From the IMG/VR virus record IMGVR_UViG_2663763286_000025, positions 1 through 4,179 of that record: 4,179 nucleotides of DNA; one strand, 5' to 3'. The notes below the pieces were generated by a model. It did not search any database and was not told where the DNA came from. It worked only from the letters and a program-made list of their open reading frames with translations. A program made the position numbers and the translations under genes. This document shows, in pieces, positions 1 through 4,179 of the stretch (position 1 is the stretch's first letter; the number at the start of each line of letters is the position of its first letter). The stretch is from a virus (Duplodnaviria; Heunggongvirae; Uroviricota; Caudoviricetes).

Positions 1-117
1 ACGTGGGTGGACTGGTATAACAATCGACGATTGCTGGAAAGGCTGGGCCATATTCCTCCGGCAGAAGCAGAAAAAGCTTATTATGCTTCCATCGGAAATA
101 ATGATCTGGCAGCCTGA
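1..117 (+). mobile_element. 3' end of a DDE transposase gene (integrase-core C-terminal tail, IS3-family-like); 5' part lies outside the window
   Basis: Frame 1 is open from base 1 and translates to TWVDWYNNRRLLERLGHIPPAEAEKAYYASIGNNDLAA, stop TGA at 115-117. The W-x-x-W-Y-N-x-R-R...L-G...P-x-E pattern is the typical C-terminal tail of DDE (retroviral-integrase-like) IS transposases. The exact IS and its terminal inverted repeat cannot be determined from the window. Confidence 0.55.
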
Positions 118-421
118 GTTCACAGATAAAATACTCTCCAGGAAACCCGGGGCGGTTCATACTGCTGTCTGCCCAAATTGCTCTCATGAAGAACCCAGTG
201 AAACAGACGACATTGTTTGGTCTTACCGTTCACGGGAAACGCCAGCCACCGACGCTTTCCTGGCTGAAGTGCGGGCGCAGGCGTTTAATGACCTTTGCTC
301 GGTGTTCGTTAAGGACGCGACGGTTGTCGGGCTGGACGATGGCGACATCGTTACGGTGAAAGAAGCGACGGACGCCCTGCTGCATTGTGCGGAACAGCTT
401 CGCAAAGGAGGCAACCAGTGA
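118..421 (+). pseudogene. Possible 3' remnant of a prophage gene whose 5' part was displaced by the IS; boundaries uncertain
   Basis: The track ORF 83..421 begins inside the transposase tail, so its N-terminus is a chimera. Its distal part stays open and ends with TGA 419-421, overlapping the GTG start (418-420) of the next gene in a GTGA arrangement typical of coupled phage genes. No credible start codon with an RBS lies downstream of the transposase stop in this frame. Confidence 0.3.
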
Positions 422-1179
422 GCAAGATTGACTTTCAGGCACTGCGTGAAAAGGCAGAGAAAGCAACTAAAGGAAGCTACATCGTAGGGCATACATCTGT
501 TAACCAGCACGGCAATTTAACAGGAGTTTTTGTTTGTCAAAAATGGAAAGGAGAGCCAGGTGGCGTGATTGCAGAATGTCACGTTAACTGTCTGGTTGAA
601 ACAGATGCTCAGGCTTATGCAAACGCAGAATTCATAGCAGAGGCTAACCCAGCTACCGTACTGGCACTGCTGGATGAACGGGAAAGAAACCAGCAATACA
701 TCAAACGCCGTGACCAGGAGAACGAGGAGATTGCGCTAACGGTAGGGAAGCTGCGTGTTGAGCTTGAGGAGACAAAATCAAAACTCAACGAGCAGCGCGA
801 GTATTACGAAGGTGTTATCTCGGATGGAAGTAAGCGTATTGCTGAACTGGAGAAAAGCGAAGAGCAACTCATCAACGAGCGTGACCATGCTGAGTCTGCT
901 TTAGCTGATATGTATTTTGCAGCAACCGGGGATAGGCCTGAGTGGAGTAACTGGTTCGGTTTTTCAGATGCTGTCAATGCCGTGGTTGACAGAATTGCTG
1001 ATTTAGAAGCTAAACAGCCATCGCCAGTAGTACCGGAAGGATTGATTAAAGCAGTGCGCTTCTATGAACAGGTTAAGCGTGAAAATCCGCCAGTCGAAAC
1101 CGGAGCATGGAAAGACGCTGTTGACTGGGTGCTCAAAGAGGCTTGTCAGGCTGTAAACATTCGCATCAAAGGAGAGTGA
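418..1179 (+). CDS. Ead/Ea22-like prophage protein (253 aa) with a central coiled-coil segment
   Basis: GTG at 418 sits 6 nt after a strong Shine-Dalgarno AAAGGAGG (404-411). The N-terminus SKIDFQALREKAEKATKG and the motif AEFIAEANPATVLALLDERE are recognisable Ea22-like signatures. The central region (ERNQQYIKRRDQENEEIALTVGKLRVELEETKSKLNEQREYY...) is heptad-like and charged. The track start at 385 is TTG without an RBS and is probably an artefact. Stop TGA 1177-1179. Confidence 0.75.
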   Translation: MSKIDFQALREKAEKATKGSYIVGHTSVNQHGNLTGVFVCQKWKGEPGGVIAECHVNCLVETDAQAYANAEFIAEANPATVLALLDERERNQQYIKRRDQENEEIALTVGKLRVELEETKSKLNEQREYYEGVISDGSKRIAELEKSEEQLINERDHAESALADMYFAATGDRPEWSNWFGFSDAVNAVVDRIADLEAKQPSPVVPEGLIKAVRFYEQVKRENPPVETGAWKDAVDWVLKEACQAVNIRIKGE

Positions 1180-1180
1180 G

Positions 1181-1369
1181 ATGAACGGACAAATATCAAT
1201 TATTCGCCCTGGCGCTTGTGACGAAGAGATAAGGCTGATTATCCGCCTTGCGATGGGTAGAACAATAACTGCTCTCATTACTCCAGAAAATCTCGCATTA
1301 GCATTAACCGGAAAGTCAGACCTGCCAGTAGAGCTAAAGCTGCGAAATGTTGAGATTAAGGTGAAATAG
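1181..1369 (+). CDS. Hypothetical small prophage protein (62 aa)
   Basis: ATG at 1181 is preceded by GGAGA (1171-1175) and lies 1 nt after the upstream stop. The ORF fills the gap between two recognisable genes on the same strand with no competing frame. No family recognised. Confidence 0.55.
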   Translation: MNGQISIIRPGACDEEIRLIIRLAMGRTITALITPENLALALTGKSDLPVELKLRNVEIKVK

Positions 1370-1371
1370 CT

Positions 1372-2040
1372 ATGACCACTATTACCAAAGAATGGCTACA
1401 GAAAACGATTACCAGCATTGAGTCAGCACGGGATGAAATACCGTTCGGACTCGATGAAGATCAAAGCAACATGCTTACCGCATTTAAAATTGCACTGGCA
1501 TCACTGGAACGCGAACAGATTCGCCACGAGCATGCCAAATGGTCTGACTCCACATTTGGCTGCGTTGGCCCCATTGGTCCACTGAAACACCTATCAAAAG
1601 AGGCTCTGGAAGCCGCAGCCGAACCTGACGATCTCAGCGAGTGGGCTGATATGCAGTTCCTGTTGTGGGATGCACAGCGCCGTGCTGGTATCAGTGATGC
1701 TGAAATTACCGCTGCTATGGAAAATAAATTGAAGATCAACATGGAACGCCAGTGGCCTGAACCAAAAGATGGTGAGCCTCGCTTGCACATTAAAGAACCC
1801 GACAACTCTCCGGGAACTCCGGATAGTTGGATAAGCTGTAGTGATCGAATGCCTGAAAAGGGCCAGAACGTGCTTATTTCGGTGAATTTCGATAGCTCTC
1901 TGGTTGAACCGCTAATATGCTCCGCACGCTATACCGGAAGCACCTTTCGGCGCGGAGATGCAACGATTAAGCCGGGTAATGGTATTGAGCAAGCAACTCA
2001 CTGGATGCCGCTACCGGAACCGCCGCAGGAGGTGAAGTGA
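1372..2040 (+). CDS. DUF550 (dATP/dGTP pyrophosphohydrolase-like, MazG-type) N-terminal domain fused to a DUF551 C-terminal domain (222 aa)
   Basis: ATG at 1372 lies 2 nt after the upstream stop. The N-terminal half (HAKWSDSTFGCVGPIGPLKHLSKEALEAAAEPDDLSEWADMQFLLWDAQRRAGISDAEI) matches the phage DUF550 pyrophosphohydrolase-like domain as I recall it. The C-terminal half (WISCSDRMPEKGQNVLISVNF...ATHWMPLPEPP) matches DUF551. Stop TGA 2038-2040. Confidence 0.7.
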   Translation: MTTITKEWLQKTITSIESARDEIPFGLDEDQSNMLTAFKIALASLEREQIRHEHAKWSDSTFGCVGPIGPLKHLSKEALEAAAEPDDLSEWADMQFLLWDAQRRAGISDAEITAAMENKLKINMERQWPEPKDGEPRLHIKEPDNSPGTPDSWISCSDRMPEKGQNVLISVNFDSSLVEPLICSARYTGSTFRRGDATIKPGNGIEQATHWMPLPEPPQEVK

Positions 2041-2612
2041 TGAACAACTTAATGATCGACCTTGAGACGATGGGGAAAAATAAGGATGCACCGATCGTTT
2101 CCATTGGCGCGGTGTTCTTCACTCCAGAAACCGGAGACATCGGACAAGAATTCTATACGGTTGTTAGCCTGGAAAGTGCTATGGGGCAAGGAGCTACACC
2201 TGACGGCGATACCATCCTGTGGTGGTTGAAACAAAGCCCTGAAGCACGAGCTGCAATCTGTATTGATGATACTTTGTCGATCAGCGATGCTCTCTCAGAA
2301 CTAAATCATTTCATTAACCGGCACGCAGACAATACGAAATATTTAAAAGTCTGGGGTAACGGAGCCACCTTCGACAACGTAATTTTACGTGGAGCTTATG
2401 AGCGAGCAGGACAAATCTGCCCGTGGGCATACTGGAATGACCACGATGTACGCACGATCGTTACGCTTGGGCGTTCCATCGGATTCGACCCCAAAATGGA
2501 CATGCCTTTCGATGGCGAACGGCACAACGCCCTGGCTGATGCCCGTCATCAGGCAAAATATGTTTCCGCTATCTGGCAGAAATTAATTCCTGCCACCAGC
2601 ACAGAATTATGA
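2040..2612 (+). CDS. DnaQ-like DEDDh 3'-5' exonuclease, phage type (190 aa)
   Basis: ATG 2040-2042 overlaps the upstream TGA by one base, with AGGAGGTG at 2027-2034. The three Exo motifs are visible: MIDLET (Exo I, D and E), GNGATFDN (Exo II, D) and ERHNALADARH (Exo III, H-x4-D). The track start at GTG 2037 is an in-frame alternative. Confidence 0.75.
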   Translation: MNNLMIDLETMGKNKDAPIVSIGAVFFTPETGDIGQEFYTVVSLESAMGQGATPDGDTILWWLKQSPEARAAICIDDTLSISDALSELNHFINRHADNTKYLKVWGNGATFDNVILRGAYERAGQICPWAYWNDHDVRTIVTLGRSIGFDPKMDMPFDGERHNALADARHQAKYVSAIWQKLIPATSTEL

Positions 2613-2648
2613 TTTTCCCGGGTGCAGCCGGTTTTGATGGAGAAAATT

Positions 2649-2930
2649 ATGAACACCTTGTTTTTACTGATGGCTGAATTCAATACCTCAAACATTGAAC
2701 TCTCAGCAGTTAGCCAAAAGTACTTTGGTATGAGTCCAGCCACAGCAGAAGCAAAAGCAAACGCTTGTAAGTTGCCCGTTCCAACATATCGCATCGGCAC
2801 ATCACAAAAAGCAAAACGTTGCATCAATATTCAGGATCTTGCGGAATACATAGACAAAAGACGAGAAGAAGGACGTATCGAGTGGGAACAGGTCAGAACA
2901 GGCAAACAGAAGGGCAAAGAACATCACTAA
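2649..2930 (+). CDS. PrtN-family / excisionase-like small DNA-binding protein (93 aa)
   Basis: The N-terminus MNTLFLLMAEF and the C-terminal DLAEYIDKRREEGR resemble the pyocin-activator PrtN family found as Xis-like proteins next to prophage integrases. ATG 2649 lies 6 nt after GGAG (2639-2642). In-frame alternatives at GTG 2622 and ATG 2637 lack an RBS. Stop TAA 2928-2930. Confidence 0.65.
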   Translation: MNTLFLLMAEFNTSNIELSAVSQKYFGMSPATAEAKANACKLPVPTYRIGTSQKAKRCINIQDLAEYIDKRREEGRIEWEQVRTGKQKGKEHH

Positions 2931-2932
2931 AG

Positions 2933-2958
2933 AAAAAACCCGCCTAAAGGCGGGTTTT
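2933..2958. terminator. Rho-independent hairpin terminator, bidirectional but stronger for the minus-strand transcript
   Basis: Perfect 6-bp GC-rich stem CCCGCC (2939-2944) and GGCGGG (2949-2954) with loop TAAA. It is flanked by an A6 tract (2933-2938) and a T4 tract (2955-2958), so the minus-strand RNA ends in six U and the plus-strand RNA in four U. It lies 2 nt after the PrtN-like stop and 19 nt after the stop of the minus-strand small ORF. Confidence 0.7.
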
Positions 2959-2977
2959 CAAAAAGCACCAGCTATGA

Positions 2978-3151
2978 TCATGCTGCTTTGCGACGACGAA
3001 GCTTACCCTGCTGCTCTTTACCAGAGACAGTAGCGTGAGTGAACGCATTAGGAGCAGCCTTCATCAGAACTTCAACAGCAGCCCCCATACCTGCGAATGC
3101 TTTCATTGTGTCGAACTTAAGCTGTGGCTTAGTTGCTTTTTGATCTTCCAT
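2978..3151 (-). CDS. Small hypothetical protein (57 aa), last gene of the minus-strand cassette; not in the supplied ORF track
   Basis: Manual translation of the reverse strand gives MEDQKATKPQLKFDTMKAFAGMGAAVEVLMKAAPNAFTHATVSGKEQQGKLRRRKAA. ATG is at 3151-3149 with GGAG 6 nt upstream on the minus strand, and TGA at 2980-2978. It sits 39 nt downstream of the 139-aa gene and just upstream of the terminator. No family recognised; the C-terminus is basic. Confidence 0.4.
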   Translation of the reverse strand: MEDQKATKPQLKFDTMKAFAGMGAAVEVLMKAAPNAFTHATVSGKEQQGKLRRRKAA

Positions 3152-3190
3152 AGAAAACTCCAGAAGCTATACCGAAACAATTCCTGTTGT

Positions 3191-3610
3191 TTACTCATCA
3201 TCAATAGATGATACGCAATATTTATTTTTAAATTTAAGGTTCTTTGGCGTAACTTCATCAGATATATCAAAACCGTCCAGAATTCTATTGAATGTAGCTT
3301 CTGGCATATCATCATGAACAGAAATCTCACCCGATCGCTGCTTTCTAACCATGTTATCCACTCGCCAAATTATAGCTTCAGCGTAAACAACATAACTTGG
3401 ATGCTTGATAAAGCGATGATCACCGGAATTCAAGACGCAAGACGGATCGTGGGGGACCCCATCCTTGATACTAGAAATATTAACAACTAAAACACAATAA
3501 CAATCGTTAACGGGGTAATAAACAGGATCATTACAAATCACATGAAGATGATTGCATGGCCCAGTTGGGGCAAGCACAGTTCCTTTCCTGTATGGCTGAT
3601 AATCCGTCAT
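3191..3610 (-). CDS. Hypothetical 139-aa Cys/His-rich protein, translationally coupled to the Panacea-domain gene; candidate toxin/effector
   Basis: Its start ATG (3610-3608) overlaps the upstream stop TGA (3609-3607) in an ATGA arrangement and has no independent Shine-Dalgarno. The protein has Cys at 19, 26, 37, 39, 58 and 132 and His at 21, 23, 54, 65, 70 and 99 (for example GPCNHLHVICNDP and NDCYCV). No hydrophobic transmembrane stretch and no family I can name. Confidence 0.6.
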   Translation of the reverse strand: MTDYQPYRKGTVLAPTGPCNHLHVICNDPVYYPVNDCYCVLVVNISSIKDGVPHDPSCVLNSGDHRFIKHPSYVVYAEAIIWRVDNMVRKQRSGEISVHDDMPEATFNRILDGFDISDEVTPKNLKFKNKYCVSSIDDE

Positions 3611-4179
3611 GATAATTGCAAAGAAAATTCCTTAAGTTTCTGAGATTCTTCCATTTTGCCAATTATGCGATTAGCCTCATCCTCGCTTTTACCCTCACTG
3701 ATCAGCATTTCTTTCAGGTCTATAGGCTTACGAGAATTGCCAGGATTGTGCCACTCTGGACAAACGCTTTCTAAATGCGTCATGTTTGCGAGATCAAATC
3801 GGTTCATATGCCCATACAGAGAATAGATTTCATCTAAAATCCGGATATCTGCACGGCTCAACTCATCAAAGACCTCGTCTGCATCCATTTCCCTCGGATC
3901 TGAACGCAACAACACATCATGCCCGTTCGTCTCTATCAAGTTGTACCAGTAGTCACCAATGCCTTCAGCCTTACCACGAATCAAGTTCAGCGTATTCGAC
4001 ATGACTGGACCAAATTTCATAGAGTAAAGGCTATCTTCGCCGATCATCCTGCCATGCTTCAAAATCGACTTGCGGTTAGACAGATAGAGCAGCTTCATCA
4101 ATTTCAGATATGCCATGCGCCCACCTCGCTTAAGAAGTAGGTATGCAGCCATTTGAGCTACTTTTTCTTCGCAAAACAT
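3607..4179 (-). CDS. Panacea-domain (DUF4065, SocA/PanA-like) protein, putative antitoxin (190 aa); start codon at the window edge
   Basis: The N-terminal region AAYLLLKRGG...YLKLMKLLYLSNRKS...MKFGPVMSNTLNLIRG matches the Panacea pattern (A-x-Y-f-l ... KLxKLLY ... GPV). The ATG is the last three bases of the window (4179-4177), so the promoter, and any 5' extension, cannot be seen. Stop TGA 3609-3607. Confidence 0.7.
   Translation of the reverse strand: MFCEEKVAQMAAYLLLKRGGRMAYLKLMKLLYLSNRKSILKHGRMIGEDSLYSMKFGPVMSNTLNLIRGKAEGIGDYWYNLIETNGHDVLLRSDPREMDADEVFDELSRADIRILDEIYSLYGHMNRFDLANMTHLESVCPEWHNPGNSRKPIDLKEMLISEGKSEDEANRIIGKMEESQKLKEFSLQLS

Follow-up and report, generated by a model that had tools for sequence, protein, structure and literature searches.

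A Panacea-coupled gene of an Escherichia coli lambdoid prophage encodes a predicted PanT toxin of cluster T6 with a MazF-like fold

The panA-panT gene pair

The DNA studied here, called the window throughout, is a stretch of 4,179 nucleotides (nt) that covers positions 1 to 4,179 of the IMG/VR virus record IMGVR_UViG_2663763286_000025 (Caudoviricetes). At its right end lie two overlapping genes, which we call panA and panT (Table 1). The subject of this study is panT, an open reading frame (ORF) of 139 amino acids (aa). The original prediction, a model's reading of the letters and their ORFs, had proposed this product as the toxin-side partner of a Panacea antitoxin. The ORF list bears out the gene and its extent, and adds the strand, which the prediction had not given, and the ATG start. 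The 190-aa ORF upstream of panT matches the family SocA_Panacea (PF13274) with an E-value of 1.8e-18 and 67.9 bits, the gathering cutoff being 25.7, and is named 'Panacea domain-containing protein' in RefSeq (WP_000458583.1). The GPV motif of Panacea is needed for toxin neutralisation (Kurata et al., 2022, PNAS, PMC8832971). In the panA product, G57 of this motif is invariant among 28 orthologs, and the conservation of P58 and V59 is 90% or higher. The start codon of panA is formed by the final three bases of the window, and the promoter of the panA-panT unit must lie past its right end.

The two genes share an ATGA in which stop and start overlap. The 25 nt located 5' of the panT ATG read TTAAGGAATTTTCTTTGCAATTATC, and the sole purine-rich stretch there, AAGGAA, lies 17 nt away. 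As this is beyond the working distance of a Shine-Dalgarno sequence, it is a fair reading that panT lacks its own ribosome-binding site and is translationally coupled to panA. The Panacea neighbour, the overlap, the missing ribosome-binding site and the resulting picture of a coupled two-gene module, all of which had been described from the sequence, are thus supported.

Several observations show that panT is a real gene and not a chance ORF. Its product has 62 close homologs, and when 1.84 billion cluster representatives (clustered at 50% identity) were searched with a profile, 2,703 matched at E<=1e-3, of which 929 reached E<=1e-10; almost all have a length of about 130 aa. In PHROGs the protein falls in the unannotated family phrog_19071 (E 3.4e-31), and its AlphaFold model is confident, with a mean predicted local distance difference test (pLDDT) score of 90 and a predicted template-modelling (pTM) score of 0.83. 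The N-terminal residues M1, P6, K9, G10 and T11 are conserved among homologs, so panT does start at the ATG at 3610. The GenBank record of phage Lys8385Vzw likewise annotates panT with 420 nt and the full 139 aa. In RefSeq, WP_014640052.1 begins at V12 and has 128 aa (window 3578-3610, minus strand; 9252-9638 in locus L001). This form is a truncation, in which 11 conserved N-terminal residues are lost and the ATGA coupling to panA is hidden.

Database records of the family deviate in other ways as well. In the record of Pseudomonas phage Sirocco, a 132-aa panT homolog at 1486-1884 is unannotated, and a 44-codon antisense ORF (1741-1875) is annotated in its place. Several Pseudomonas and Halomonas RefSeq entries are shortened to 103-108 aa; the 108-aa Pseudomonas forms appear to begin at a Met in the place of C26 and would thus lack H21. 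Clustering of proteins at 90% identity grouped the 139-aa toxin with 190-aa Panacea proteins and a 232-aa 'DUF4065' protein despite their unrelated sequences. A fusion or frameshift in a database entry could account for this mixed cluster, as could an artefact of the clustering.

Membership of PanT cluster T6

The partners that go with Panacea antitoxins have been surveyed by Kurata et al. (2022, PMC8832971), whose toxin cluster T6 includes PanT(Pse. mor.) from Pseudomonas moraviensis BS3668. This protein is toxic in E. coli and is rescued by its cognate PanA only; it is pulled down with that PanA in a stable PanA:PanT complex, and it selectively blocks protein synthesis, as seen from inhibited 35S-Met incorporation (PMC8832971). 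In Dataset S1 of that study, T6 members are listed for Proteus, Pantoea septica LMG 5345, Pluralibacter, Photorhabdus, 'Yersiniaceae bacterium 2016Iso4', Salinivibrio socompensis, Halomonas and others, and the pairs listed there are all ordered antitoxin then toxin with a spacing of mostly -4 or -1.

Two homologs of the window protein, WP_101821906.1 (57% identity by BLASTP, E 3e-57) and WP_025672779.1 (49%, E 8e-42), stand under exactly these accessions in the T6 toxin column of Dataset S1, and our loci from Pantoea septica LMG 5345 and strain 2016-Iso4 show the spacings given there for the two genomes (-4 and -1). Over 120 aa, SDU72800.1 (SAMN04490196_4922) from P. moraviensis BS3668 shares 43% identity with the window protein (E 6e-34). 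In phage Sirocco, the panT homolog directly follows a PanA that starts with MIFSEQKVAQ, the ten residues that the authors restored to P. moraviensis PanA (PMC8832971). The exact T6 accessions and the homology to the P. moraviensis protein place the 139-aa protein in T6, a membership that is established at the level of sequence. The original view of an unrecognised family and a candidate new toxin domain therefore does not hold. Both the T6 family and its association with Panacea have been in print since 2022, as have its toxicity and the prediction of a MazF-like structure; what is new is the E. coli prophage member.

The linkage to Panacea is strict. The ORF directly upstream of the panT homolog was a PF13274 Panacea gene in 28/28 scorable related loci, most of which show a -4 or -1 overlap. 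Among 5,426 complete E. coli genomes, 208 (~4%) carry panT; in all of them the gene is chromosomal and has a Panacea gene as its neighbour, and 200 of the copies share an identity of 99% or more. Many of the carriers among the genomes listed are Shiga-toxin-producing E. coli (STEC) of O121 and related strains, and panT is also carried by induced phages. Taken together, there is hardly any doubt that the 139-aa protein is the toxin in a toxin-antitoxin pair of the prophage, and it is very probably a T6 toxin that is neutralised by PanA. No Pfam, NCBIfam or PADLOC family was recognised for it, and sub-threshold matches to ICMT and DapC in these scans were rejected as noise. The supplements of the NetFlax paper do not list the T6 accessions.

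Predicted fold and conserved core

The AlphaFold and Foldseek analysis that the original prediction had proposed returned a MazF/Kid/CcdB-like fold. In the model, strands 10-16, 19-25, 30-32, 37-47 and 72-83 form an SH3-like barrel of the CcdB/MazF superfamily type, residues 48-71 form a long loop, and helices span 84-93, 104-116 and 122-131. The product is globular and, as had been suspected, soluble. The best 50 PDB matches in Foldseek were all MazF-family toxins, with a probability of up to 1.00, and the best viral matches were named 'PemK-like protein' and 'Endoribonuclease'. The model thereby independently reproduces, at the level of predicted structure, the published HHpred assignment of PanT(Pse. 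mor.) as an RNase of the EndoA/PemK/MazF family (PMC8832971).

The prediction had further pointed to ten clustered residues, C19, H21, H23, C26, C37, C39, H54, C58, H65 and H70, as a metal-binding or catalytic site. All ten positions are correct in the translation, which also holds H99 and C132. In a divergent alignment of 133 sequences (132 representatives and the window protein) with a median identity of 33%, H21 (98%), D55 (97%), C58 (98%) and H65 (98%) are conserved, and a conservation of about 91-98% spans these four together with G63, F67, S72, Y76, G113 and S117. In the same set, H23 is 41% conserved, with F, Y or W elsewhere, C26 is 21% conserved, and C19, C37, C39, H54 and H70 vary. 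In a set of 211 closer members, conservation reaches 98-100% at H21, H23, D55, C58, H65, S72, Y76 and S117 (99-100% for the family-wide core), and the position of C26 is Met in the Pseudomonas branch. A pair of S or T residues occupies positions 46-47, with position 47 being S or T in 98% of members. As aligned, the family signature is H21...D55-x-x-C58...H65...S72...Y76 plus the S/T pair at 46-47.

Because most residues of the cluster vary in the divergent set, the ten-residue cluster is mostly lineage-specific. What stands of the proposed site is the smaller core H21/D55/C58/H65, which could still be catalytic or bind metal. A classical zinc cluster with four or more conserved Cys/His ligands was provisionally rejected; only H21, C58 and H65, plus D55, are conserved.

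Genomic context

The panA-panT pair is an accessory cassette beside attP of a lambdoid prophage that is integrated at dusA in E. coli. In the integrated state, the pair lies at the prophage junction and abuts a 105-nt dusA fragment, with the integrase at the opposite prophage end. In the circular genome of phage Lys8385Vzw the order is int (minus strand), a gap, panA, panT, a 57-aa ORF and xis (minus strand), so that the cassette lies between int/attP and xis. The guanine plus cytosine content of the cassette is 39-43%, against 46-53% in the rest of the window. These observations on composition and position concern window 3000-4179, L001 10240-10600 and L035 2880-4432.

The 57-aa ORF follows panT, and its product is rich in Lys and Arg at the C-terminus. 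Of 35 loci, L001 and L035 alone carry it, and all non-E. coli loci lack it. It was rejected as a third component of the module, being restricted to the E. coli phage versions.

The plus-strand genes at window 83-2930 make up a typical lambdoid early-left arm. Besides the IS3-family fragment of the window (Table 1), IS3/IS600 copies disrupt this prophage arm in strain 2013C-3492. In phage Lys8385Vzw, the gene at the position of the pyrophosphohydrolase, next to the exonuclease, is labelled 'valyl-tRNA synthetase', which looks wrong.

Table 1. Features of the window, with the panA-panT unit listed ahead of the flanking features.
Feature	Position	Strand	Remarks
panT, 139 aa, predicted T6-family toxin	3191-3610	minus	predicted MazF/Kid/CcdB-like beta-barrel, then C-terminal helices
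panA, 190-aa stand-alone Panacea-domain antitoxin	3607-4179	minus	PF13274 match
ATGA start/stop overlap (-4) of panA and panT	3607-3610	minus	window sequence
Codons of the family-wide core (candidate active site)	3415-3550	minus	H21 at 3548-3550, D55, C58, H65 at 3416-3418; S72 and Y76 just downstream
57-aa ORF, phrog_2741 (function not known)	2978-3151	minus	E 1.5e-35; 39 nt downstream of panT
Intrinsic-terminator-like hairpin	2934-2959	minus	11-bp stem, then T run; closes the unit, flanked by the cassette and the convergent xis-like gene
PrtN/excisionase-like protein	2622-2930	plus	
Rv2179c-like 3'-5' exonuclease	2037-2612	plus	
dATP/dGTP pyrophosphohydrolase fused to DUF551	1372-2040	plus	
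Ead/Ea22-like protein	385-1179	plus	
3' end of an IS3-family transposase ORF, ending in WVDWYNNRRLLERLGHIPPAEAEKAYYASIGNNDLAA and a stop	1-117	plus	NCBIfam transpos_IS3, weak (E 0.0017), last model residues

Discussion

We consider it likely that the locus is a type II PanA-PanT module whose T6 toxin has a MazF fold, with translation-blocking RNA cleavage as the favoured chemistry. The strict Panacea linkage with its gene overlap, the T6 accessions, the homology to a validated toxin, and the location and base composition of the cassette support this reading. In such a module, the 190-aa stand-alone Panacea protein would be translated first and the 139-aa toxin then via the ATGA coupling. By analogy with the P. 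moraviensis homolog, the free E. coli toxin would arrest growth by a selective block of protein synthesis, and PanA would neutralise it by direct binding. The fold suggests that the toxin may act by cleaving an RNA needed for translation, i.e., mRNA, tRNA or rRNA, and on the basis of the model we lean slightly towards RNA cleavage as the chemistry of panT. The active site is probably formed by H21, D55, C58, H65, S72 and Y76 together with the S/T46-S/T47 turn, which would replace the canonical Arg/Thr of MazF. A role of the cassette in prophage maintenance or in defence against other phages is plausible.

A number of observations weigh against this interpretation. The phenotype reported for the T6 representative is translation inhibition, and RNase activity is what we infer for the family. 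The TM-scores of the panT model to MazF are modest (0.44-0.63). No match to PF02452 was found in 54 family members scanned, even at E<=10. An hmmsearch of PDB sequences with the family profile returned no MazF and nothing meaningful, as did a phmmer search of PDB sequences with the 139-aa protein, and when the family profile (effective number of sequences, Neff, 2.7 and 5.7) was compared by hhalign with MazF and Kid of E. coli, whose sequences were verified as exact PDB chains, the probability was about 1%. The fold match comes without a link at sequence level, and we therefore label the protein 'MazF-fold' and do not assign it to PF02452. The hhalign alignment is colinear, though non-significant, and places S46 on MazF T52, S47 on T53 and H21 beside H28/R29, which we take as no more than a lead; the canonical catalytic Arg/Thr pair of MazF is not demonstrably present in panT, which has the conserved His/Asp/Cys/His instead. 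SDU72800.1 was equated with the assayed WP_083201923.1 by strain only, and RefSeq often cuts the Pseudomonas T6 proteins to 108 aa. The E. coli pair is not among the rows of Dataset S1 (PMC8832971) in the part available to us, and neither the panA nor the panT product matched PADLOC-DB v2 at E<=1.

The strongest rival keeps the MazF-like scaffold and gives it another chemistry, with H21/D55/C58/H65 as a Zn site or a Cys-His-Asp nucleophile and the protein acting as a metal-dependent nuclease or a modifier of the translation apparatus. MazF catalysis is metal-independent and uses Arg and Thr, while the four core residues of the panT family are kept at 97-98% at a median identity of 33%. That no sequence method ties the family to MazF, that it adds C-terminal helices to the barrel, and that translation inhibition by the homolog fits many chemistries all speak in favour of this rival. 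However, one Cys, two His and one Asp also suit the acid-base site of an RNase, as in Kid, whose RNase site uses His, Asp and Arg, and the fold neighbours are overwhelmingly RNases. We regard this rival as rather unlikely. The same low expectation applies to its more far-reaching version, in which the T6 PanT would be a mechanistically new translation-targeting enzyme on a MazF barrel with its own His21/Asp55/Cys58/His65 centre, and the E. coli copy might be a phage-triggered abortive-infection module. CcdB shares the MazF fold, and panT could thus in principle encode a CcdB-like poison of DNA gyrase. However, CcdB (PDB 1vub) is a weaker structural match to the panT model, and it brings about replication arrest, whereas the panT family is associated with translation arrest; the antitoxin is also different. 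We consider such a gyrase poison very improbable.

It is equally hard to credit that the protein is not toxic in E. coli and is a harmless accessory or structural phage protein beside a Panacea gene. Eight PanA-adjacent candidates were indeed non-toxic in E. coli (PMC8832971), and in the T6 rows of Dataset S1 three Pasteurellaceae toxins (Histophilus, Haemophilus and Pasteurella) bear the product name 'terminase'. Because the family has a MazF-like fold, these labels were probably carried over from neighbouring phage genes. A harmless role fits poorly with the Panacea linkage in 28/28 loci and in all 208 E. coli carriers, with a validated toxic member in the family, and with a conserved gene overlap and a toxin fold. 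A structural phage protein in particular was rejected, since phrog_19071 carries no structural annotation and the fold is that of a toxin. The resemblance to a histidine-triad (HIT) motif, which had been noted for the H-L-H-V-I stretch at residues 21-25 and would make the protein a HIT-like nucleotide hydrolase or transferase, is not real. The H-x-H-x-H-x-x motif is incomplete, as the sequence runs H-L-H-V-I-C without a third His, and in more than half of the divergent members an aromatic residue (F/Y/W) takes the place of H23. No HIT family was found in Pfam scans of the window protein and 54 members, and the fold matches MazF and not HIT. The HIT reading is refuted by these observations, and we give it next to no credence.

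With a T6 toxin as the preferred reading, the name PanT-T6 toxin, with PanA as its partner, can now take the place of 'hypothetical protein' for a gene product encoded in about 4% of complete E. coli genomes and by induced phages. The analysis also exposes annotation errors, i.e., a RefSeq start of panT that lies 11 codons late, Pseudomonas copies cut to 108 aa, and a gene missing from the record of phage Sirocco. The conserved residues of the panT family are now defined as H21, D55, C58, H65, S72 and Y76. T6 is a large family of about 2,700 clusters at 50% identity, without a Pfam model, with one assayed member and with an unusual conserved core.

Compared with MazF, PemK and Kid (PF02452; PDB 8zws, 4mzm, 1m1f and 5ck9), panT is paired with Panacea instead of MazE, PemI or Kis, and it has about 30 extra C-terminal helical residues. 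Similarity in sequence or profile is undetectable between the two, and the RNase activity of panT is putative. A second Panacea-neutralised toxin of pathogenic E. coli is known from the T3 PanA-PanT pair of STEC O31. There the toxin is a small peptide that has a transmembrane segment and depolarises the membrane (PMC8832971), and it bears no relation to the soluble panT product with its MazF fold. The closest known system is PanA-PanT(Pse. mor.) of T6. The window protein shares 43% identity with the BS3668 protein and 49-57% with the accession-verified T6 members, and the two systems agree in a toxin of about 130-140 aa, a stand-alone Panacea antitoxin without N-terminal domain, the order of antitoxin then toxin with a -4/-1 overlap, and the H-L-H...D-x-x-C...H core. 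The window toxin differs in that it comes from an E. coli lambdoid prophage, carries a Cys at position 26, which is Met in Pseudomonas, ends in a short acidic C-terminal tail and is followed by the extra 57-aa ORF.
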